Shown here piece by piece: positions 1 through 16,792 of a stretch of 64,000 nucleotides of DNA (its first letter is position 1; each line of letters starts with the position of its first letter). Origin of the DNA: Eubacteriales bacterium (GTDB lineage Bacteria; Bacillota; Clostridia; Oscillospirales; CAG-382); contig JAZSHQ010000021.1 in assembly GCA_045533335.1 (NCBI GenBank), positions 2,648 through 66,647 on the forward strand. Direction: 5' to 3'. The translations under genes and the position numbers were made by a program. The notes under the pieces are model-generated. The model was given only the letters and a program-made list of their open reading frames with translations. It ran no database searches and was not told the origin of the DNA.

Positions 1-846
1 CGAAGGGATTTGACGGTAGGAAATATAAAGAGAATTCACATAGAAATTTTCTACGATTGCTTATCTGACGATGGATTATCTCCAAATTCAATTATAAGAT
101 ATCACGCGATAATGCGCAAAGCATTTAACCAAGCATTTAAAGATGAAGTTATCCTAAGCAATCCTTTTGATAAAGTGGACAGACCTCGCAAAAAGAGGTT
201 TATTGCCGATAACTATACCGAAAAGGAATGGAAACAAATATTAGAGATTACAAAAAACGATCCTATCTATCCCGCGATAGTATTAGCCGCATGTATGGGA
301 TTAAGAAGAAGCGAGGTATTGGGTGTGAGATGGTCGAGAATCAATTGGGATGATAACTCAATTCTCTTGGACACTAAAATTGCCGAATTTGATGAGCAAG
401 GTAAAAGAGTTATATCTGCTGTTGAAGAAATGAAAACCGAATCAAGTAGAAGAAAGCTCTATATGCCGCCTATGGTAGTCGATATGTTGAAGAATGAAAA
501 AGAAAAGCAAGAATTATATCGTGCTATGTTCAAAAGCGGATATTCGAAAGACTTTGAGGATTACGTATGTGTAAATCAATTGGGTGAGCTCTTAAAACCA
601 TCCTATGTAACAGGGCATTTTGCTACGTTATTGAAAAAGCACGGAATGCGACATATTCGTTTTCACGACTTACGCCATACCTTTGCGAGCATACTTATAA
701 ATAATCAAGTGCCTTTAATAAACGTATCTAATTTTCTTGGGCATTCTGATATATCAACCACGGCGAATATTTACTCGCATCTTGATATGAAAAGTATAAA
801 AAATGTTAGTGATGTAATTACTGCTGTTTTCGAGGGAGAGCTATGA
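1..846 (+). CDS. Tyrosine recombinase / phage-type integrase, 5'-truncated by the window edge
   Basis: The frame is open back to base 1 (the ORF track starts at TTG 10). Catalytic residues are readable: GLRRSEVLG (Arg), HDLRHTFAS (H-x-x-R), GHSDISTTANIYSH (His..Tyr nucleophile). Confidence 0.85.
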   Translation, partial: RRDLTVGNIKRIHIEIFYDCLSDDGLSPNSIIRYHAIMRKAFNQAFKDEVILSNPFDKVDRPRKKRFIADNYTEKEWKQILEITKNDPIYPAIVLAACMGLRRSEVLGVRWSRINWDDNSILLDTKIAEFDEQGKRVISAVEEMKTESSRRKLYMPPMVVDMLKNEKEKQELYRAMFKSGYSKDFEDYVCVNQLGELLKPSYVTGHFATLLKKHGMRHIRFHDLRHTFASILINNQVPLINVSNFLGHSDISTTANIYSHLDMKSIKNVSDVITAVFEGEL

Positions 847-1406
847 AAGTGAAACAAAAAAGTAATAAAGCATATTTAAGCGGTGAAGAACTGGCGAAAT
901 ATCTGCATATTTCAAAGAAAAAGATGAGATATCTATTAGAAAACAGATATATACCTGCGATAGATACGGGAAAGAAAACACATAGATATCAAATCGAAAA
1001 GAAGCATGCGCAAAAACTAAAGAAGCTTTTAGAACAAACCTATGTAACGCTTGCGTTAAAGGGAAAATTCGGCAGAATACCGCCTAAGGTGTCGATAGAG
1101 CCAACAGACGCTAACAGTATAAAATTCGGAGAATTTCTAACAAATAGGTGGAAAAACGAACCAGATGCCTTATATATACGAAGGGCATCGGAATTGACCG
1201 GTTTTGCTCGTCAGCGATTGGGTGAACTCTGTAATAAAGAAAAAATTCAATACGTAAAAGTGGGGCGACGGTTTGTATTGGTTAAGATAAGCTTTATCGA
1301 GTTTTGTTCTTCAAAAGAAATGTTATCTAAGATTCAAATCACTCCTGCGTTTCGAAAGCTTGCGAGTGATTTTTTGAAGACCACAAATGAAGAAAAATCA
1401 GATTAG
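843..1406 (+). CDS. Excisionase/MerR-like helix-turn-helix DNA-binding protein (putative Xis)
   Basis: ATGA overlap with the integrase stop. Two HTH-like stretches (LSGEELAKYLHISKKKMRYLLENRYIP; RRASELTGFARQRLGELCNKEKIQYVKVGRRFVL) resemble excisionase-family DNA binders. The gene sits beside the integrase. Confidence 0.55.
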   Translation: MKVKQKSNKAYLSGEELAKYLHISKKKMRYLLENRYIPAIDTGKKTHRYQIEKKHAQKLKKLLEQTYVTLALKGKFGRIPPKVSIEPTDANSIKFGEFLTNRWKNEPDALYIRRASELTGFARQRLGELCNKEKIQYVKVGRRFVLVKISFIEFCSSKEMLSKIQITPAFRKLASDFLKTTNEEKSD

Positions 1407-1823: not shown

Positions 1824-1878
1824 ATAGTTTATAGAATATTGAGTTGTAATTAAAATTTGGTAAACAATGCGGGTCTAC

Positions 1879-2022
1879 GCCCCGTTATGTCCGGTTTGCG
1901 GTGCCCGAAATTTTCTGTTCGCAAATCGCTCACAAAATTTCGACCGCTGCACGACGTCATCCTCGCTGTATCTGCCACAGGCAGCGCTCGGCTTCCGTCC
2001 CGCTTCGATACCTCTGCATAGT
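1879..2022 (-). pseudogene. Partial tRNA-Ser 5' copy (leader + nt 1-18 and nt ~19-33) split at the D-loop GG by a 106-nt insert
   Basis: 2000-2022 is 23/23 identical to 1806-1828 (tRNA 5' end plus leader ACTAT). 1879-1893 is 14/15 identical to 1794-1808. The two pieces are separated by 1894-1999 and each side carries CCG. No anticodon, T arm or 3' acceptor is present. Confidence 0.8.
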
Positions 2023-2235
2023 ATATAAGATATAGAGATGTTTTTTATAACGCACGGCGAATCACGCCGCGAGCACTATTGTATCACGGAAAAAGGTTTT
2101 TTGCAACAGTTTTTTGAAAAAATGTTTTAAAAATAGCGCGGTTGGGTGTCGATAATGCTTGATTTTGATTTTTTTGTATGTTAAACTTTAATTGTAAAGA
2201 GGCGATTACGTGTTTTTTTCGAAAGGTGATGCGGA

Positions 2236-3101: not shown

Positions 3102-6100
3102 TCAATCGTTAAGCGGGAGCATAAGCTTATGATTTCCGTCTGAAAGCGAAAGCGGGAAGGTTGCTTTGTTGCCGTCCAACTCCGCATATTCGGTTTCGCG
3201 CGCGGCCACAACGTGGATATGGGCGTTGCCGAGAGTGATATCGCACTCAAAGGCGATTACGGGCGAAGCGTCGAGCAGGGTTTGGTTTGCACCGAGCTTT
3301 AAGCCGAGGACCTGCTCGAGCATAATGCGGTAATACCACGAAGCCGCACCCGTATACCAGCTCCAACCGCCGCGTCCCGCAAAATCGCCGCCGTATATAT
3401 CCGCCGCAACGGCGTACGGCTCGGTTTTATAGCGCGAAGCCAGCTCCTTGTCGGCAGAGCGCGAAGCGGGGTTGGCGCAATCAAGAATAAGCAAGGCCTC
3501 CTCGGTCATTCCGCATTTCAAAAACCCAAGCGCGCCCCACAGCGCACCGTGGGTATATTGCCCGCCGTTTTCACGGATGCCCGCAACGTAGCCGCGTATA
3601 TAGCCAACGCGCGCATTGCCGTTGGTAAAGGGCGGCGAAAACAGCGAAAATATTCTGTTTTTGCGGTCATACAGCTTGGAAAATGCCGTATTTAGCGCGG
3701 TTTTTGTGCGTTCGGGGTCAAGCCCCGCGAGCGCGGCAAAGGCTTGCGACAGTATATCGATTTCGCATTCGCCGCAACCGTCGATACCCAATATTTTGCC
3801 GTCATCGCAGAATGCGCGCGCGTATCGGTCGCCGAAAAAGGCTTTTTCCTCGAGGTTTTTCTTAAAGCGTTCGATGCTTTCGCGGTAGTGTCGCGCCGTG
3901 TCCTTGTCCCCGCGGGAATCTATAAACGGCAAAAAGGCTGTTGCCGCGATAATAAACAGCATTGTCGAAAATACGCTTTCGCCGACCCCTTTCGCGCCGA
4001 CGAGTGAAAATGCATCGTTCCAATCGCAGGAGCCCATAAGAATAAGACCGTTTTTGCCGACACGCTCGGCGCAGGCGAGCGCGCGCAAACAATGGTGGTA
4101 AATGCTTTCTTTAATTTCGCTTCTTTCAGGGAGCTCGTAACGCTCGTTTTGCTTTCCGAGCGGGGGCGAGGTGAGATAATGCACCTCGATATCCAAAAGC
4201 GAGAAGTCGCCCGTTTTTTCGATATAATCGGCAATAACTATCGGCAGATAAAGCAGGTCGTCGGAGCATTTGCTTTTTATTCCGCTGTTAACGCGGTTTT
4301 GAACACGCGTGTGCCACCAATGCATAACGCTTCCGTCGAGATACTGATGAGCGCAACAACGGATAAGGTGTGTTCGCACGGTGCGGGGCGACGAATATAT
4401 AAGCGTAAGGCAATCCTGAAGCTGGTCGCGAAAGCCATAGGCACCGCCGCTTTGGTAAAACGAGCCGCGCGCATAAAAACGGCAGGCGGCAACCTGATAG
4501 GGAAGAAAGAAATTGAACATAAGGTTTTGCGCTTTGCTTTTTGTGGTCAGCTTTATTTTTGGAATAAAGGAATCGGCAAACGCCGCCGCTTCGGCAAGCG
4601 TCGAATCGAAAAAGGCGGTGTTAACGCGTGCGCAAATATTTTTTGCACCGCCTTCGGTCGTGCAGGCACCGATAAAAAAGAGCGTGCTGTTGCCGATATG
4701 AGAAAGACATTTTCTTTCTGCGTCGGCGGCACCGTTGCAAACACCCACAAAGCCGCGCCCCTCGGGGAAGGTAATACCGAAGCTGTTTTTGAACATAAGA
4801 CAGCTGTTTCCCGAAACGGCGGTTTGCATAATTTCGATACCGCTTTGCGGTGCAACGCCGTTGCCCATAACCAGCTCGATACAAAACCGCGTTTCGATAT
4901 CGCCTGCGGCGTATTCCACACGCATAAGCTTTATCGGGAATTTAGGATGGACGGTAACGGTAAGCGTGTAATCTGTTCCGTTTACGCTTCCGCAATAGAC
5001 CGCTTTGCCCGCTTCAAACCGCACGCTTTGCGAAATTGCGCAAAGGTCGTAGCGTTTGCCGTTGATAATCGCAAATATGCGTTCTCCGTTATCGAGCGAG
5101 CGCGCGTCGCCGTAAAACGAGCAAAGCCTGCGTTCGCGCGCGTTGTCGTAAAAGGTATAGCCGAGGCTCGATTGCGTAACGATGGTCGAAAACCTTTTTC
5201 CGGTAAGAACGAAGGAATAGGGCGCGTCGGGGAGCGTGCTTTTATCGACGGTAAAGCTTTTTTCGGTAAAAAAGCCGTAATTCGTTTTTAAAGCGCCGTT
5301 TGGCATAGTGAGCGCGCGGGTGACCGTCGGGCACGCGATTATCTCCTCGCCAAACGCGGTCAGCGGTTTATTGCTTTTGCGGTTTGATGAAAAATCGTAA
5401 TAAAAATCCGCTTTGCCTTTAAGCGCGGCAATAAATTCCTTGTCGGTTTCGCTTTCGCGCAGAATAAATATTCCGCCGTTCGCGCCTAAATACTGCGTTA
5501 GTCTGTTTGCGGCGCAACGCTCGCGCAGGGCCTTTTCGACAGGTCGGTTGTAGCCGTCGCTGTCCGAAACGATAAATATAAGCTCACAGCGTATGCAGGC
5601 GCGCACAAGTGCAACGTAGGCGTTCAATATCGCGTCGGTGCGGCTTATTGCCGTTTCGGAAATATGCACCAGCACTATCGGGTGGTCACCCGATATACCG
5701 CGCGCCCAAAGGTCGTTTATGCTGTATTTTGAAAGGGTATCGACCTTTTTGCCGCCCGAACGGTAAAGAATAGCGGGAAGCATTTTATCGAGCATTTCGC
5801 TTTGCAGTGAAAATCCGTATTCGCTTTTATCGGCGCGTGCAAGGCGAATGTTTTTTTCGCATTCGCTTTTGGTTTCGCCGCAGGCGATAAGAAAAACGGC
5901 ACGGCCGCCTTCTGCATTTTGGGCGCGAATAAGGCAAAGCGGGTCTATGCAAGCTCCCGTTTTGTTATCTGTTTCGAGCATTGCGTAATCGAAAACGTTT
6001 GTGACCGAGCTTGCCTTTAACGATTCGCGGCTCGTGATAAAGGAAATATCGGTATCTTTTTCGCGCGGGGCAACAGCGAGGGTAAAAATATGCCTGCCGT

Positions 6101-9100
6101 CAAGCCCGCTTCTTCGGTGGAAATAAAGTATACGCTTTTGCTTATCGTATTCGCTTTCGATAAAAAGGCGCGAAAAGGAGATATGCGAAAGATATTTTTT
6201 CGCACTTTCGAGCACCGGCTCAAAAGCAAGCGTTACCGAATATTTTTTGTTTGCCTCGGCGCGGGTGCTTATTATAAAGCAGGAGCAGTTTTTTGCCAAG
6301 GAATAGCGCACTCGCCCCGAAAACTCCTTGTTCGAAACGATATGCGACGCCCGCCCGTCGCCGCGTTCGAAGCCGTAGCTCCCTTCGCCGTATAGCGGAG
6401 CACATCCGAAATGGCGGTTTCCTCTTGTAAACACGACCGACGGCGAAAAGCGCATGGAAAATTGCGAAAATTCGGTATGGGCAAGCATTCTTTCGCCGCA
6501 GGTAAAACCGATATGACCGCTGCTCGTTATTACCGCGCTTAAGTCGCCGCGGGTGAGCAACGCCGCCAACGGGTCGAGCACCGACGAATTTTCGGTACGC
6601 ACACCGCGCGCGGCGGGGATATGGCTTTCGCGAGCCTCTCTGCCGAAAATTTTTTCGAAAATATGCGCGCCCGTGGGGATTTTTTCCTGCAAAAGCTCGC
6701 TGGCGGCAGACATACTTCTGTCGGACATAAATCGCTTTACAAAAACATTATCGTTTGTTGCGTTCATAACCGCAATAATGCTCATTCCGATATGGTGCGC
6801 CATATAGCTTTTAACGCATATCCCGCCGGAATCTCGATTTAAATCAAGCGCTTCGTAAAGACCGTATCTGCCGTACATCCCGCGGTTTTCAAAGGCTTTA
6901 AGGTTTTTTATTGCCGAATTGCCGAGCAGGCACAGCGAAAGATAGGTCGAATAGGGCGAAATCGTTTTTTCGTCCTGCGCTATGCGTCGCAAGGCAAGCG
7001 TCTGTATGCCGTTTGCCTTATATTGATAATGCATTTCGCTGTCGAACGAATAAAAGCCGCTTTCGCTAATGCCCCAAGGCTCGCATTCCGCGCGCTGAAG
7101 CATAAGCGAAAAGGCAATGCTTTCGTACATAAACGAATCGCGGTACAGCGGCAGAAACAGCTGGGGCATAAGGTATTCGAAAGCCGTGCCCGACCAGCTC
7201 ATCATACCGATATAGCCCTTGCTGTGGGTGAGCGTGCGGTTAAGCGAGCTCCAATGCTTTTTCGGCACCGCGTGCTTTGCGACCGCGTAATAGGCGGTCA
7301 TTCGCGCCTCGCTCATAAGCATATCGTAACAGCTTTTATCGCGTTCTCCGCTTTCGCCGTTTACGCCTATGCGGAACAGATTTTTGCGTTCGTCGTAAAA
7401 TACAGTGAGGTCGGTTTCGGTAATAATCGCTTCGATGCTTTTTATAAGCGGCTCGGTTTGCTCATCCTCGTCCGCATATTCGCGCAGACCCTCCTTAAGT
7501 GCGATGAGCATAACAAGAAAATTACCGCTGTCCACCGCCGAAACGTAGCCGTCGCCAATAACCGAAAGGCTTTTTATATCGTACCAATTATATAAATTGC
7601 CGTTGTATTTTTTAAGCTTTTCTATAACCCGAATACTTTCTGTAAGGCGCGTTCGAAGCGTTTGAGTGTCTATATCGCCGTTATCGCGTGCGGCAAGCAG
7701 GGAAATAAGGTAAAACCCGATATTCGTCGGGGAGGTGCGGTAGGCGGTATCGTACACCGGCGACATTTGAATATTGTCGGGCGGCAGGTGGTTGGTGGTG
7801 GAGTTGACGTTTTCAAGATAGAACTTTACCATATCCGAAGCCTGCGCCGAAAGCAGCTTTTTTTGTTTTTCGCTAAGATTGGGCTTTGCCTCTATTCCGC
7901 CGCCGAGCGGGCGCGAAAGCGAAAGTGCAACAAGCGGATAAACGAAATAAAGCAGCCCTGCAAGCCGAATAAACGGTGGGTATGCGAAGGCGAGCAAAGC
8001 AAGCCCGACCGCCGCCGAGGGCGCGCCGTCGAGCACGTATTTGCCAAGCGAGGAGGAAAGCTTTTCGGTTTGTGCGGCGGTGGTCCATTCGAGCGTCTTT
8101 TTACGGGTGTATAGCCTTATGCAGGCAAGCGCAAGCGCGTGCAAGGCAAGCAAGGCGCGACGTGCACTCGAGGATATTTCGAAGGACAGACGCATAAGCG
8201 TTTGTGCGAGCATCGAATATGCTTTCGAAAAGAAGCGAAGAGATGCAAACGGCGTACCGCTCAAGAAAAAGCATATAATCGCAAGCGCAGAAGGAAGCAG
8301 AGATTCGGAATATGCGAGCAGAAACAGCGCAAGTCCAAACCCCTTTGAAAACGCCGAAAACAGCACCGCGAGCAGAGAACACAGCGGCGATAAATGTCGA
8401 AGCGCGACAAGAAGCAACCGCCATTTTGAAAAAGCGTCCAATCTGTTTCCGAAAAGGAAATAAAGGTTTTGAAAATCGCCGCGCATCCAACGGTGCTGGC
8501 GTCGGAAAAACGAAACCGTGTTTGCGGGGGTGGAATCGGTAAATGTTATATCGGTTGCGGCAAGCGTTCGCATAATGCTTCCCTCGATAATATCGTGGCT
8601 CAAAACGAGGCCTTCGGGCAGCTTGCCGTTAACTGTTTTATCGAACAGCTCAACGTTTATAAGCCCTTTCCCGCAAAAGCTTCCGGTCCCGAAAAGCGTT
8701 TGCCTGCGCGAAAATTCGGCGTTTGAGTATGCGTCGGCTCCGCCCGTGCCCGAAATAAGACGCGAAAACGAGGTTTTGTACGCACTTTTAAGCGAGGTAT
8801 GCACCGACGGTTGAATGATTCCATAGCCGCGTACCGCTTTGCCGTTTTCGGTTTGCGGAGCATTTACGGGGTGAAGCGCGATAGATAAAAGCTCGTTCAC
8901 GCCCGAAAGCGAAAGGTTTGTATCGGAATCGAGGGTTAAAAGATATTTTATATCTCTTATAAAATCGCCTCCGTAATATTCGCTTTTTCCGCCGTGCACG
9001 ATATGGGTAACCAGCTCGCACACCGCCCCGCGCTTTCTTTCCCAACCGCCGTATCTGCCCTCGCTTTCATTCATCACGCGTTCGCGCAGAAAAAGGCAAA

Positions 9101-10148
9101 AATGGTTGCCGTGTAATCGGTTAAGCTCGTCAATGCACTTGCGCGCGTTCGAAATCAGCGAATTATCGTCGACGCGGTAGGGGCTGTCGCAATCGGGCAG
9201 GTCGGCAAGCAGGCAGAAATAAATATTATCGTCGGGATTCATATAGCGAAACCGCGCAAGCGATTCGAAAATTTCATCGTCCTTGCCGTTAAGGAGTGCC
9301 GCCACGGCAACGAGTGTTTTTGCGTTGCCGGGTATTTGCGCCAAATCAAGTCTCGGCGCACGGAACGCAGGCGCGAAGCGTGATATTATTTGGTCTGCCG
9401 CCGCGCTCGAAGCGATGGAGTAGGGAATGATCAAAAGCAAGGTTACCCACCCGACCGCATAAAAGGAAAAGGCGGTCAACAGCATTAAAATCGCCGCAAA
9501 AGCGGTTATCCACGCGAAGGTGTAGCTTTTTTGCGGAACGAAAAGATAGCTTCCGAGCGGAAGACTTTCGAGCCTTGCACGCTCGGTTAGTGCGCGCGCC
9601 GCCTCGGTTTCCGCCATACCGTTCCGCTTTGCGTAGTCGGCAAGCAATTTGCGGTACTGCTCTTTCGTTTCGCGGTCGAAAAGCGCATAGTCCTCCTCGA
9701 AGTGTGAAATTACCGATTCGGGCTCCCAAAGCTCGGGAAGAATATCGCCGTATTCGGGGTCGTCGAGCGATTGAAGCAGCTTTACCGCATTCGGTAGCAG
9801 ATATCCGCTTTTTTCGTCGCGCAGGGCTTCGCTTATGCAAACAATAGCGCAGACCGAAAGCAGGGTGGGCAGAGCGCAAAGCGTATAATAATCGAAGCTT
9901 TTTTCGCAGGACGCAAGAAAGGCTTTAAGCGTTTTCGGGGTGGCAAGGCAATCGCGCTCGGCGCAATAGCGTTTAAGCAAATAATAAAGCTCGCTTTGCG
10001 AAAGCGCATTACTGTCCGAAAGCGCCGTGCGGTAAAATTTGTCGATAATATAGAAATTATCGGTAAGCCACGCCGATACCTCGCGCGCGGAAAGGCTTTT
10101 TTGTATTACAGAATAGGAACGTTTAAGTCGTTTGCGAAGATCTTGCAT
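3102..10148 (-). CDS. Giant membrane glycosyltransferase / glycan phosphorylase fusion, cyclic beta-1,2-glucan synthase-like (GT84 + GH94-type)
   Basis: 2348-aa ORF. GT-type LTLDSDTNL and RRQHRWMRGD motifs are flanked by hydrophobic spans. The C-terminal region has GH94-style YGFRDQLQD and SCDWNDAF motifs. The architecture resembles Cgs/NdvB/ChvB. Confidence 0.75.
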   Translation of the reverse strand: MQDLRKRLKRSYSVIQKSLSAREVSAWLTDNFYIIDKFYRTALSDSNALSQSELYYLLKRYCAERDCLATPKTLKAFLASCEKSFDYYTLCALPTLLSVCAIVCISEALRDEKSGYLLPNAVKLLQSLDDPEYGDILPELWEPESVISHFEEDYALFDRETKEQYRKLLADYAKRNGMAETEAARALTERARLESLPLGSYLFVPQKSYTFAWITAFAAILMLLTAFSFYAVGWVTLLLIIPYSIASSAAADQIISRFAPAFRAPRLDLAQIPGNAKTLVAVAALLNGKDDEIFESLARFRYMNPDDNIYFCLLADLPDCDSPYRVDDNSLISNARKCIDELNRLHGNHFCLFLRERVMNESEGRYGGWERKRGAVCELVTHIVHGGKSEYYGGDFIRDIKYLLTLDSDTNLSLSGVNELLSIALHPVNAPQTENGKAVRGYGIIQPSVHTSLKSAYKTSFSRLISGTGGADAYSNAEFSRRQTLFGTGSFCGKGLINVELFDKTVNGKLPEGLVLSHDIIEGSIMRTLAATDITFTDSTPANTVSFFRRQHRWMRGDFQNLYFLFGNRLDAFSKWRLLLVALRHLSPLCSLLAVLFSAFSKGFGLALFLLAYSESLLPSALAIICFFLSGTPFASLRFFSKAYSMLAQTLMRLSFEISSSARRALLALHALALACIRLYTRKKTLEWTTAAQTEKLSSSLGKYVLDGAPSAAVGLALLAFAYPPFIRLAGLLYFVYPLVALSLSRPLGGGIEAKPNLSEKQKKLLSAQASDMVKFYLENVNSTTNHLPPDNIQMSPVYDTAYRTSPTNIGFYLISLLAARDNGDIDTQTLRTRLTESIRVIEKLKKYNGNLYNWYDIKSLSVIGDGYVSAVDSGNFLVMLIALKEGLREYADEDEQTEPLIKSIEAIITETDLTVFYDERKNLFRIGVNGESGERDKSCYDMLMSEARMTAYYAVAKHAVPKKHWSSLNRTLTHSKGYIGMMSWSGTAFEYLMPQLFLPLYRDSFMYESIAFSLMLQRAECEPWGISESGFYSFDSEMHYQYKANGIQTLALRRIAQDEKTISPYSTYLSLCLLGNSAIKNLKAFENRGMYGRYGLYEALDLNRDSGGICVKSYMAHHIGMSIIAVMNATNDNVFVKRFMSDRSMSAASELLQEKIPTGAHIFEKIFGREARESHIPAARGVRTENSSVLDPLAALLTRGDLSAVITSSGHIGFTCGERMLAHTEFSQFSMRFSPSVVFTRGNRHFGCAPLYGEGSYGFERGDGRASHIVSNKEFSGRVRYSLAKNCSCFIISTRAEANKKYSVTLAFEPVLESAKKYLSHISFSRLFIESEYDKQKRILYFHRRSGLDGRHIFTLAVAPREKDTDISFITSRESLKASSVTNVFDYAMLETDNKTGACIDPLCLIRAQNAEGGRAVFLIACGETKSECEKNIRLARADKSEYGFSLQSEMLDKMLPAILYRSGGKKVDTLSKYSINDLWARGISGDHPIVLVHISETAISRTDAILNAYVALVRACIRCELIFIVSDSDGYNRPVEKALRERCAANRLTQYLGANGGIFILRESETDKEFIAALKGKADFYYDFSSNRKSNKPLTAFGEEIIACPTVTRALTMPNGALKTNYGFFTEKSFTVDKSTLPDAPYSFVLTGKRFSTIVTQSSLGYTFYDNARERRLCSFYGDARSLDNGERIFAIINGKRYDLCAISQSVRFEAGKAVYCGSVNGTDYTLTVTVHPKFPIKLMRVEYAAGDIETRFCIELVMGNGVAPQSGIEIMQTAVSGNSCLMFKNSFGITFPEGRGFVGVCNGAADAERKCLSHIGNSTLFFIGACTTEGGAKNICARVNTAFFDSTLAEAAAFADSFIPKIKLTTKSKAQNLMFNFFLPYQVAACRFYARGSFYQSGGAYGFRDQLQDCLTLIYSSPRTVRTHLIRCCAHQYLDGSVMHWWHTRVQNRVNSGIKSKCSDDLLYLPIVIADYIEKTGDFSLLDIEVHYLTSPPLGKQNERYELPERSEIKESIYHHCLRALACAERVGKNGLILMGSCDWNDAFSLVGAKGVGESVFSTMLFIIAATAFLPFIDSRGDKDTARHYRESIERFKKNLEEKAFFGDRYARAFCDDGKILGIDGCGECEIDILSQAFAALAGLDPERTKTALNTAFSKLYDRKNRIFSLFSPPFTNGNARVGYIRGYVAGIRENGGQYTHGALWGALGFLKCGMTEEALLILDCANPASRSADKELASRYKTEPYAVAADIYGGDFAGRGGWSWYTGAASWYYRIMLEQVLGLKLGANQTLLDASPVIAFECDITLGNAHIHVVAARETEYAELDGNKATFPLSLSDGNHKLMLPLND

Positions 10149-15925: not shown

Positions 15926-15983
15926 CCCGTGTTCGTGCCCAATCGACCGCAGATTCAATCTTACGTAAAACGCAAAACAAAAA

Positions 15984-16000
15984 GACGGGCAACACCCGTC
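15984..16000 (-). terminator. Hairpin terminator 3' of tRNA-Pro
   Basis: GACGGG-CAACA-CCCGTC, followed on the minus strand by TTTTTGTTTT. Confidence 0.65.
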
Positions 16001-16009
16001 TTTTTGTTT

Positions 16010-16086
16010 TGGTCTGAGTGAGAGGATTTGAACCTCCGGCCTCTTGGTCCCGAACCAAGCGCTCTACCAAGCTGAGCCACACCCAG
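16010..16086 (-). tRNA. tRNA-Pro (anticodon CGG), CCA encoded
   Basis: Minus strand: acceptor CTGGGTG/CACTCAG, D arm GCTCAGCTTGGTAGAGC, anticodon arm CTTGG-TT-CGG-GA-CCAAG (G37), T arm GGAGG-TTCAAAT-CCTCT, A-CCA. Confidence 0.9.
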
Positions 16087-16120
16087 ATATTAAATTGTTA
16101 TTATTGATTGTCGCAAAACG

Positions 16121-16310
16121 CCAAGCGCTCTTCCTGTTGCGACTAAGGCTCTGTCTGCGTTCGCTTTTCCCTAAAAATGCACGCATTTTCAGGGGATCTA
16201 TATTCGTTGCTCACTTGCCAATCGCCAAGTCGCTGCCACTCGTTTTTGCTCGCTGTATCTGTCCCTGACAGCGCTCACAAAAACTCCCCAAGCTGAGCCA
16301 CACCCAGATA
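16121..16310 (-). pseudogene. Partial tRNA-Pro 5' copy (leader + nt 1-20 and nt ~22-32) split at the D-loop GG by a ~153-nt insert homologous to the tRNA-Ser insert
   Basis: 16288-16310 is 23/23 identical to 16067-16089. 16121-16134 is 13/14 identical to 16055-16068. The insert 16135-16287 is flanked by CC on both sides. The anticodon loop, T arm and 3' acceptor are missing. Confidence 0.8.
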
Positions 16311-16317
16311 CTCGGCT

Positions 16318-16346
16318 ATTATAACAAAACCGAGGTGCTTTGTCAA
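16318..16346 (-). promoter_or_regulatory. Consensus sigma-A-type promoter driving the split tRNA-Pro fragment and, by read-through, tRNA-Pro
   Basis: Minus strand reads TTGACA (16346-16341), a 17-nt spacer, TATAAT (16323-16318), then 7 nt, then the TAT leader and tRNA nt 1 at 16307. Confidence 0.7.
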
Positions 16347-16378
16347 TGCTTTTGTTTGAGAAAACACAAACCAAAATA

Positions 16379-16792
16379 TTATTTCCTATTTGAATCGAGG
16401 TAGGATTGCAAAATTATCTGCGCCGATAGGGCGTCGACGACATTTTTGCGCTTTTTGCCGTTAAAATCGGCGATATTCATATAGGTGTATGCCTCGACGG
16501 TAGATAACCGTTCGTCGACAAAAATCACCTCGAGCCCCGTTTCGGTGCCGATCATTTCGGCAAAGGCGCGCGATTTTTCGGCGCGGAAGGATTCGCTTCC
16601 GTCCATATTCTTCGGAAGCCCCAAAACTATCTTTGCGCCGTTAAGCTCTTTTATTTTCGCGGCGCATTTTTTGCAGGCATCGCGCATACCCGAAACGTTT
16701 ACCGTGCAAACCGTGCTTGCCAAAAATTCGGTTTCGTCGCTTACCGCGATACCGCAACGCGCGTCGCCGTAATCTATTCCTATAATTCTCAT
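16379..16792 (-). CDS. ruvX: Holliday-junction-resolvase-like YqgF/RuvX pre-16S rRNA nuclease
   Basis: MRIIGIDYGDARCGIAVSD N-terminus, ...GLPKNMDGSES..., ...VDERLST.... 137 aa, typical of YqgF. Confidence 0.85.
   Translation of the reverse strand: MRIIGIDYGDARCGIAVSDETEFLASTVCTVNVSGMRDACKKCAAKIKELNGAKIVLGLPKNMDGSESFRAEKSRAFAEMIGTETGLEVIFVDERLSTVEAYTYMNIADFNGKKRKNVVDALSAQIILQSYLDSNRK

Follow-up and report, generated by a model that had tools for sequence, protein, structure and literature searches.

A structured non-coding repeat of gut Clostridia, probably a non-autonomous mobile element, lodged in truncated 5' copies of tRNA genes

Introduction

The DNA considered here is a stretch of 64,000 nucleotides from a member of the Eubacteriales assigned to the Oscillospirales (assembly GCA_045533335.1, contig JAZSHQ010000021.1), referred to below as the window. 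It carries genes for tRNA-Ser(CGA) and tRNA-Pro(CGG) that are each preceded by an incomplete copy of their own 5' region, and each of these copies is interrupted in the D-loop by a non-coding insert, here termed element E. E belongs to a structured, non-coding and dispersed family of about 105–120 nt, previously undescribed, that occurs in Oscillospirales-type gut Clostridia, and both the family and its association with tRNA genes are solid. The explanation that we favour, and consider fairly probable, is that E is a non-autonomous mobile element which inserts next to the GG of a loop and which, at tRNA genes, is carried in a spare copy of the tRNA 5' end and its leader. The case is built on observations of family membership, structure, junctions, genomic distribution, an empty orthologous site and the positions of promoters and terminators. 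Loci and contigs used for comparison are denoted by L followed by a number.

Interrupted tRNA Copies in the Window

The tRNA genes were placed with ARAGORN and Rfam and the layouts are described in tRNA sense, all features lying on the minus strand. Upstream of the intact tRNA-Ser(CGA) (1735–1823), 5 nt of leader and tRNA nt 1–18 recur at 2000–2022 (copy A), identical at 23/23 positions to 1806–1828 and comprising the 5' strand of the acceptor, the 5' strand of the D-stem and the D-loop as far as its GG. This 23-mer, ACTAT followed by GCAGAGGTATCGAAGCGG, occurs twice in the window against none expected in 100 shuffles, which rules out a chance origin of the repeat, and the repeat family (D1) continues over 42 nt at 88% identity. 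A second piece, copy B', reproduces tRNA-Ser nt ~19–33 at 1879–1893, that is the remaining D-loop, the 3' strand of the D-stem and the start of the anticodon stem; it forms part of repeat D2 (1794–1811 versus 1879–1896, 18 nt, 89% identity, corresponding to 14/15 for 1879–1893) and its first base is A where tRNA-Ser has T. Identity to the tRNA stops at nt ~30–33 and neither a T arm nor a 3' acceptor strand follows. The gap between the two pieces (1894–1999, 106 nt) lies inside E, which the covariance model described below places at 1892–2001 (110 nt, including the GG at each junction), and the plus-strand CCG at 1891–1893 and 2000–2002 gives CGG on both sides of the insert in tRNA sense. An AT-rich spacer lacking a consensus promoter (1824–1878) leads from B' to the intact gene and opens with a short hairpin of which B' is the 5' strand. 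The gene itself is followed by an intrinsic terminator (1700–1734, inverted repeat I2).

The arrangement at the intact tRNA-Pro(CGG) (16010–16086) is built in the same way. An exact 23-nt repeat, with a spacing of 221, places a copy of 3 nt of leader and tRNA-Pro nt 1–20 at 16288–16310; the covariance model delimits an E of 156 nt at 16133–16288; and AAGAGCGCTTGG at 16121–16132 is a copy of tRNA-Pro nt 21–32, identical at 11/12 positions, with A as its first base where tRNA-Pro has T. The terminator lies at 15973–16011. This E shares the 5' domain, the closing helix and the tail with the Ser copy, its central domain is larger, and it is near-identical to a copy in L119. The Ser and Pro inserts have in common a 28-nt motif, GAGCGCUG-YCNNNGR-CAGAUACAGCGAG, whose hairpin carries a compensatory change between them (CUGCC/GGCAG versus CUGUC/GACAG, C-G to U-A). 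An initial annotation, made from the window's letters alone, had described the two pieces of tRNA-Ser, their separation by 106 nt, the CCG on both sides, the end of identity at about nt 33 with loss of the 3' parts, the 55-nt AT-rich spacer and a recurrence of the architecture at tRNA-Pro; all of this was borne out, with the boundaries of the insert now set by the model.

A Dispersed Family with a Conserved Fold

An exact scan of 185,579 species genomes for the core motif yielded at least 119 loci. Thirty-three E copies were aligned (alignment A2) and a covariance model, R1, was built from them. Among the matches listed, the hairpin is present in 73 core matches and R1 finds 83 copies in 73 loci. 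Exactly two copies are found in the window, the Ser copy as a full-model match (102.4 bits, E-value 2.4e-22) and the Pro copy with 59.4 bits (E-value 2.4e-12). True core matches, again among those listed, come mostly from Oscillospiraceae, Acutalibacteraceae, Faecousia, Congzhengia, Christensenellaceae, Ruminococcus and unclassified metagenome-assembled genomes of Eubacteriales, and a scan of viral contigs with the exact core motif produced one true match.

The 5' part of E consists of GG, followed by GGAC or GGAG and a strongly covarying stem, P2, of 4–10 bp that brackets the core. The core, GAGCGCUGCC-UGU-GGCAGAUACAGCGAG (1962–1989, minus strand, in the Ser copy), folds into a 5-bp hairpin with a 6-nt bulge and two closing C-G/G-C pairs. 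In the 3' part, GAGUGGCAGCGGUC is followed by a long AU-rich hairpin, GGGCACCGCAA, two variable bases and the terminal GG. In the alignment 95.2% of the cells are paired, compared with 29–53% when the 3' partners are slid, and 125 cells show double changes, compared with 15–38 in the slid controls; the observed values were reached in 0 of 500 shuffles. The variable tail bases are paired with the two bases just 5' of the 3' hairpin (17 + 11 double changes), and this 2-bp tail-to-foot helix (columns 53–54 with 115–116) stops before the terminal GG. R1 also retrieves variant cores that retain the hairpin, for example CCGUC/GACGG in L332. Single-sequence folding of the Ser and Pro leaders gave z-scores of only -1.8 and -1.4, which are uninformative alone.

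Nothing in Rfam 15 overlaps E, either in the window and both leaders (gathering thresholds and E-values up to 10) or in 15 other loci, where the matches are confined to tRNA and unrelated families; a run on the insert, which the initial annotation had suggested, thus matched no family. That annotation had also left room for an insert present only once, or for a known insertion sequence (IS) or miniature inverted-repeat transposable element (MITE); many copies of E exist, and no annotated IS or MITE matched. A BLAST search with the E consensus gave no match among phage records and, among the plasmids of PLSDB, hit only the chromid of Vescimonas fastidiosa, where no feature is annotated. A description of E was not found in literature searches. 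Self-cleaving ribozymes, K-turns, attC sites, hepatitis delta virus-like ribozymes and group I or II introns were considered, by eye and with Rfam, and their features did not fit. A tRNA intron, of group I or with a bulge-helix-bulge, was likewise rejected, the interrupted copy having nothing from the anticodon loop onward, no T arm and no 3' acceptor strand, and no intron family matched in Rfam.

Some families carry only the core-plus-P2 module, with other 3' domains (L116, L123, L133, L143, L189, L203, L156 and L168). Such copies were also seen at L335 23869–23975, L335 46491–46597 and L336 1117–1223; the ~107-nt 'type C' of Vescimonas is a family of this kind, and in L156 and L168 the form lies 3' of tRNA-Ser(GCT). 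The module looks like a reusable protein- or ligand-binding unit. An Rfam Gut-1 RNA found at L160 3217–3288 (53.8 bits against a gathering score of 50) is unrelated to E.

Location of the Element in Genomes

About 30 of the 73 core matches, among the matches listed, lie 150–500 nt upstream of a tRNA gene on the same strand. Nine tRNA types are represented, with Ser-CGA the commonest and the others being Ser-GCT, Ser-TGA, Leu-CAG, Leu-TAG, Leu-TAA, Pro-CGG, Pro-TGG and Trp, and in the listed matches all tRNA-linked E copies are co-oriented with their tRNA. The left flank of these copies is nearly always the genome's own tRNA, copied from nt 1 to the D-loop GG, the exception being Leu-TAA (L188), and to the right the tRNA sequence resumes in the D-loop and continues for 6–27 nt.

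Copies away from tRNA genes occupy intergenic DNA, often 3' of a co-oriented gene or in the space separating convergent genes. Many copies of type A sit in the loop of a palindrome resembling the repetitive extragenic palindromic (REP) sequences, with the form GTAGG..CGGnnATG-T[E]R-TCATnnCCG..CCTACGR. Such hairpins also occur free of E, with loops TGGG, TAGG and TGGT, and one REP loop, GTGGTCAT, is identical to the GTGGTCAT of the tRNA-Ser D-loop. Elsewhere, E copies stand head to tail and share a single GG (L139, inside a leader) or lie beside remnants of older 3' ends (L118, L121). BLAST finds E in 24 places on the chromid of V. fastidiosa MM35; its first 250 kb carries 8 copies, 4 sense and 4 antisense to the neighbouring genes, and 0 of the 15 tRNA genes there has E nearby. 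Near-identical copies have unrelated flanks, both within and between genomes.

Occurrence in either gene orientation speaks against the family being dedicated to a leader function, and a cis-regulatory leader of the riboswitch or T-box-like kind was rejected for the family as a whole on account of dispersed copies located between convergent genes or antisense to the genes on both sides. Among the possibilities raised in the initial annotation, a small non-coding element that had entered a duplicated tRNA 5' segment gains support from a dispersed family located at the D-loop GG, from its non-tRNA sites, from the nine isoacceptor types and from an empty orthologous tRNA-Pro site (see below). The census of copies that it proposed revealed many, but not all at tRNA D-loops, since intergenic sites and REP loops are occupied too.

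REP-like palindromes with a GTAG head and a CTAC tail, for example GTAGGGGCGGAC...GTCCGCCCCTAC, are abundant and have several stem variants; they were seen in L334–L338 (the V. fastidiosa chromid), L142, L046, L181 and L124, and form composite repeats with E. Tandem arrays of the unit [5' copy + E] occur in L127 (557–996, three units with an N-gap) and in L153. Contigs L330 and L331 end inside E, so that the repeat evidently breaks short-read assemblies.

Partial tRNA Duplications and Empty Sites

Among the loci listed, 22 tRNAs are preceded by one or more partial copies, and in every case at least one of these contains E; the 23 bystander tRNAs of these loci have no partial copy. Four of the 22 also have a truncated copy lacking E that ends at nt 27–42. 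The duplicated stretch often takes in 3–85 nt of the upstream leader, leader segments of 19–85 nt marking it as a tandem event, and the arrangement is that of a tandem duplication of the upstream leader and nt 1 to ~33, with E in the promoter-proximal copy. The order of events may have been as follows. D-loops would be hot spots for E, and insertion into a functional tRNA gene would destroy the gene, such hits being lost. Only hits in a partial tandem duplicate would persist, and this duplicate would then be trimmed to the D-stem closing E, with the distal copy serving as the intact gene.

Other arrangements were also observed. In L178 (7536–7880) an intact tRNA-Trp precedes E, and beyond E the 3' end of the tRNA recurs together with a terminator. 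An inverted copy of the tRNA-Met anticodon arm precedes E in L151 (minus strand, downstream of tRNA-Met) and in L236 (7690–7960). In L171 and L213 a conserved sequence of ~130 nt (TTCYTCGCCAAACGGA...CTTTAACCGTGCGG...) lies between a truncated tRNA-Ser copy (nt 1–42) and the intact tRNA, and may be a second kind of insert.

For the Pro locus, 80 related metagenome loci were retrieved with RuvX, encoded by the gene upstream of the leader, and none of them carries E. In two lineages, L251 and L254/L250 (64% and 70% RuvX identity), ruvX is followed by a promoter and an intact tRNA-Pro(CGG) with neither E nor a partial copy. These loci have a TTGACA/TATAAT promoter and a leader of 30–50 nt, and they represent the empty orthologous site; the window and L119 have an additional 221 nt between promoter and tRNA-Pro. 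The closest RuvX relative, L249 (79% identity), lacks the promoter, the E block and tRNA-Pro(CGG) altogether, and there (864–960) ruvX leads directly into the terminator that follows tRNA-Pro in the window (cf. 15960–16400).

At the Ser locus, five contigs that carry the neighbouring 102-aa gene (76–90% identity) all have E together with the first copy and the Ser promoter. The closest relative (L330/L331) carries another E subtype, and in the remaining contigs P2 and the core hairpin show compensatory changes relative to the window. Both constraint on copies that stay in place and their turnover at a hot spot would fit such a pattern.

Junctions and a Proposed Mode of Insertion

E starts with GG in 60 of 67 copies and ends with GG in 61 of 67, counting seven in which the model match is one base short, and the commonest base before E is T (30/67). 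The 3' ends read NCGG or NAGG, and E is often preceded by T-GG. No inverted repeat relates the two ends, GGGGAGCG... and ...CACCGCAACAGG, and no clear target duplication was found, the flanks having no repeat beyond the ambiguous GG. A classical DDE-type MITE was rejected for want of terminal inverted repeats and of a target duplication of fixed length. GAGCGAG-like subterminal repeats are present only in the type-A subfamily and are absent from the subtypes in tRNA leaders.

We infer, by analogy, that E is mobilised in trans by an enzyme of the IS200/IS605–IS607 superfamily type. E would insert strand-specifically next to a GG in a hairpin loop, the observed targets being the tRNA D-loop, REP-like palindrome loops and the 3'-terminal GG of another E, and the co-orientation of every tRNA-linked copy would follow from strand-specific use of the sense-strand GG. 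Insertion might proceed by a GG-for-GG exchange catalysed by a serine TnpA or by single-strand insertion 3' of a short motif by an HUH enzyme; a motif like E's own 3' end, hairpin-loop targets, nesting in REP-like sequences and the tail-to-foot pairing fit the latter.

The search for such an enzyme covered 8-kb loci, the 64-kb window and 250 kb (five 50-kb chunks) of one replicon, the Vescimonas chromid. A crude screen for the RuvC and zinc-ribbon motifs of TnpB found none in the fetched loci, the window or the 250 kb of Vescimonas, and no annotated transposase is listed in the latter. An autonomous partner was also sought beside the core-only copies, where the neighbouring open reading frames (ORFs) are ordinary genes, mostly on the other strand, and just upstream of E, where they are housekeeping genes; both candidates were rejected. 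A viral-contig scan with the E 3' end returned complete E copies only and no autonomous relative. The large serine recombinase beside E in L175 is probably coincidental.

Transcription and Neighbouring Genes

A consensus scan located a promoter-like site, TTGCAA-17-TG-TACAAT, at 2078–2106 (minus strand), upstream of the interrupted Ser copy. It is the sole consensus promoter on the tRNA strand in 1650–2250 and is conserved in the syntenic relatives. The Pro promoter, TTGACA-17-TG-TATAAT (16318–16346, minus strand), is a perfect 12/12 match and the sole promoter-like site on its strand, ending 10 nt upstream of nt 1 of the interrupted copy. At both window loci the sole terminator on the tRNA strand follows the tRNA. 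Each block lies between the sole consensus promoter and the tRNA and is therefore probably transcribed. Judged from these signals, the pre-tRNA most likely includes E in a 5' leader of ~200 nt, from which E would be released when RNase P matures the tRNA.

Just past the 3' end of tRNA-Ser, the window carries at 10–1406 (plus strand) a tyrosine integrase gene (Phage_integrase and SAM-like domains, cut by the start of the window) and an excisionase-like HTH_17 gene, a pair that suggests an integrative element using the 3' side of tRNA-Ser. Upstream of the Ser leader lies an ORF of 2348 aa (3102–10148, minus strand) that is syntenic in relatives; its homologue in L329 has GH94/glycoamylase domains of the cyclic beta-1,2-glucan synthase or cellobionic-acid phosphorylase type.

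Evaluation of the Explanations

Several observations weigh against a non-autonomous mobile element that merely survives in spare tRNA copies. The strict coupling between partial duplication and E is not obviously explained by passive survival, nor are the mirror and inverted arrangements in L178, L151 and L236 fully explained by so minimal a scheme. The Pro flanks have stayed identical to the cognate tRNA though the upstream sequence has diverged, and the distance from E to the tRNA clusters at 63–73 nt in four unrelated tRNA types. A purine directly after E replaces tRNA U20 in Ser, Pro and Trp, which would not be expected from clean insertion at GG. Neither beside any E copy nor in the window or the 250 kb of the Vescimonas chromid was a transposase, TnpB or RAYT gene seen. 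The comparison of genomes with and without the insert, as the initial annotation had proposed, uncovered the empty Pro site in relatives but no filled and empty pair between close strains, the Pro relatives sharing only 64–70% RuvX identity, and all five syntenic Ser contigs are filled. As to the fold, exceptions in the helices are about equally G-U and A-C, so that either strand, as RNA or as single-stranded DNA, may be what folds, and the invariance of the 28-nt core in the first matches results from the exact-pattern search. The block could, on these grounds, be functional or be generated by E's own machinery.

A functional block would agree with a leader RNA selected by the host, in which the truncated 5' half together with E controls how the tRNA is transcribed, folded or matured by RNase P; it might do so by competing with the true 5' half for the tRNA 3' strand or by binding a protein at the core. 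The position between the sole consensus promoter and the tRNA at both window loci counts in favour of such a leader. The initial annotation's suggestion of a processed RNA or leader may hold for the block, which is probably transcribed, but the dispersed copies in either orientation speak against it for the family. The tRNA-Ser(CGA) arrangement is kept across several genera, down to 76% identity of the neighbouring protein; the flanks match each genome's cognate tRNA, also where tRNA sequence varies from one genome to another; compensatory changes preserve helix pairing in syntenic copies; B' always forms the base for a hairpin; and the clustering of the E-to-tRNA distance at 63–73 nt holds for four tRNA types. 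However, E is common at tRNA-free sites, often between convergent genes and in either orientation, relatives manage with a promoter directly followed by tRNA-Pro and one of them without tRNA-Pro, and the acceptor part of the copy decays in L222 and L105. The differing E subtypes in syntenic leaders look like turnover, and E-E tandems occur inside leaders (L139). On balance we regard a host-selected leader as unlikely. A guide RNA of the omega or right-end (reRNA) type used by TnpB nucleases, orphaned and placed on strong tRNA promoters, is an explanation that we also judge improbable, although it would account for some details which simple insertion leaves aside. Here the scaffold would end at GG and the following 12–16 tRNA-derived nucleotides (tRNA nt 20–35) would be the guide; a nuclease encoded in trans would cut ~15–20 nt into the tRNA gene, aberrant repair would yield truncated tandem or inverted duplications, and the purine replacing U20 would protect the intact tRNA from self-targeting. 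The omegaRNA scaffold of IS607 ends ...UCGG, its transposon-adjacent motif is TGGG and its guide is the 3' flank (10.1101/2023.11.20.567912; PMC10711439). E, often preceded by T-GG, has NCGG or NAGG ends, a last helix that abuts the junction, a post-E tRNA segment of 12–16 nt in most Ser and Pro copies, truncated copies that end 12–27 nt past the GG and a first post-E base mismatched to the tRNA in Ser, Pro and Trp, and the local tandem and inverted duplications around it look like products of break repair. Set against this, the crude motif screen revealed no TnpB-like ORF in the fetched loci, the window or the Vescimonas sequence, no autonomous element with E-like ends was found, a length of ~110 nt is small by the standard of known scaffolds, the retained segment (6–27 nt long) also simply closes the D-stem, and half of the dispersed Vescimonas copies are antisense to local transcription.

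An origin of the block as a scar of integration or excision at the tRNA gene, be it an att-type remnant or a degenerate miniature island, had also been proposed in the initial annotation and we consider it very improbable, even with truncated copies ending in or near the anticodon loop in L110, L146, L171 and L176 and with a tyrosine integrase and an excisionase-like HTH gene beside the window tRNA-Ser. That integrase lies on the 3' side of the tRNA, whereas the duplicated segment is the 5' end; the unit measures only ~194 nt and holds neither an ORF nor a recombinase; homology breaks in the D-loop and not at the classical sublocations in the anticodon loop, the T-loop or the 3' end; the 110-nt E sequence occurs at dozens of non-tRNA sites; and E-free tRNAs in the same loci have no partial copies. 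A non-autonomous element that enters loops at GG remains the explanation that we prefer.

Implications

E adds to the uncultured gut Clostridia a structured repeat that is abundant, lies outside Rfam and was not met in the literature searched. As a mobile element it would demonstrate a way of occupying tRNA genes without killing them, by means of a spare truncated 5' copy, and carriage in the tRNA primary transcript would, to judge from the promoter positions, give it very high expression. The tRNA D-loop would then be a fourth insertion sublocation beside the anticodon loop, the T-loop and the 3' end. If the guide-RNA explanation were true, E would provide natural multi-copy orphan guide RNAs that shape tRNA loci, and tRNA genes would be both hot spot and expression platform of an RNA-guided selfish system. 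For the annotation of E-bearing genomes, pseudo-tRNA 5' fragments and tRNA leaders of ~200 nt are to be expected.

Comparison with Known Systems

Elements of the IS607 family use a GG-GG crossover at both ends and at the target and produce no target duplication (PMC6188088; 10.1101/2023.11.20.567912; PMC10711439), and the clostridial members prefer (T)GGG (10.1101/2023.11.20.567912; PMC10711439). E resembles them, clostridial IStrons included, in its GG ends and target, in the lack of terminal inverted repeats and of a target duplication, in a preference for T or G before the GG, in a structured right-end RNA bordering directly on the flank and in its occurrence in Clostridia. It differs in being non-coding and ~110 nt long, with no tnpA or tnpB nearby and no autonomous relative found, in a covarying fold over its whole length where IS607 has direct-repeat ends, in targeting hairpin loops and in the purine that follows its 3' GG.

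The ~100–150-nt repeats RUP, BOX, Correia/NEMIS, ERIC and bcr1 are, like E, multicopy, intergenic, often co-transcribed and stably folded. They have terminal inverted repeats and target duplications of TA or similar, and we know of no case in which they target tRNA D-loops or accompany partial tRNA duplications. The tyrosine-integrase elements that target tRNA genes share with E a partial direct repeat of the tRNA flanking the insert and the retention of an intact tRNA. They differ in duplicating the tRNA 3' part, in crossing over within the anticodon loop, the T-loop or the 3' end and in encoding an integrase, whereas here the 5' part, the D-loop and a 110-nt insert are involved.

Common ground is also found with the non-autonomous palindrome-associated transposable elements (PATEs) of the IS200/IS605 family and with the REPs and REPINs that RAYT (HUH) transposases mobilise, all of which like E are small and structured, have subterminal hairpins and lack inverted ends and target duplications. 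E would likewise insert strand-specifically 3' of a short motif resembling its own 3' end, giving rise to tandems, and it is nested in GTAG...CTAC REP-like hairpins. The pairing of the bases 5' of the right hairpin with the tail recalls IS608, in which guide sequences are said to pair with the cleavage sites. Unlike PATEs and REPs, E has left and right hairpins that are unrelated to one another and no GTAG head of its own; its target is a G-rich dinucleotide, compared with the AT-rich tetra- or pentanucleotide of IS200/IS605; and no Y1 or RAYT gene was identified with it in the 8-kb loci and the 250 kb of one replicon. E fits no named family, given the missing transposase, ends unlike those described and its absence from Rfam; by analogy it behaves as a non-autonomous member of the IS200/IS605–IS607 world that resembles the REP/REPIN and PATE elements.

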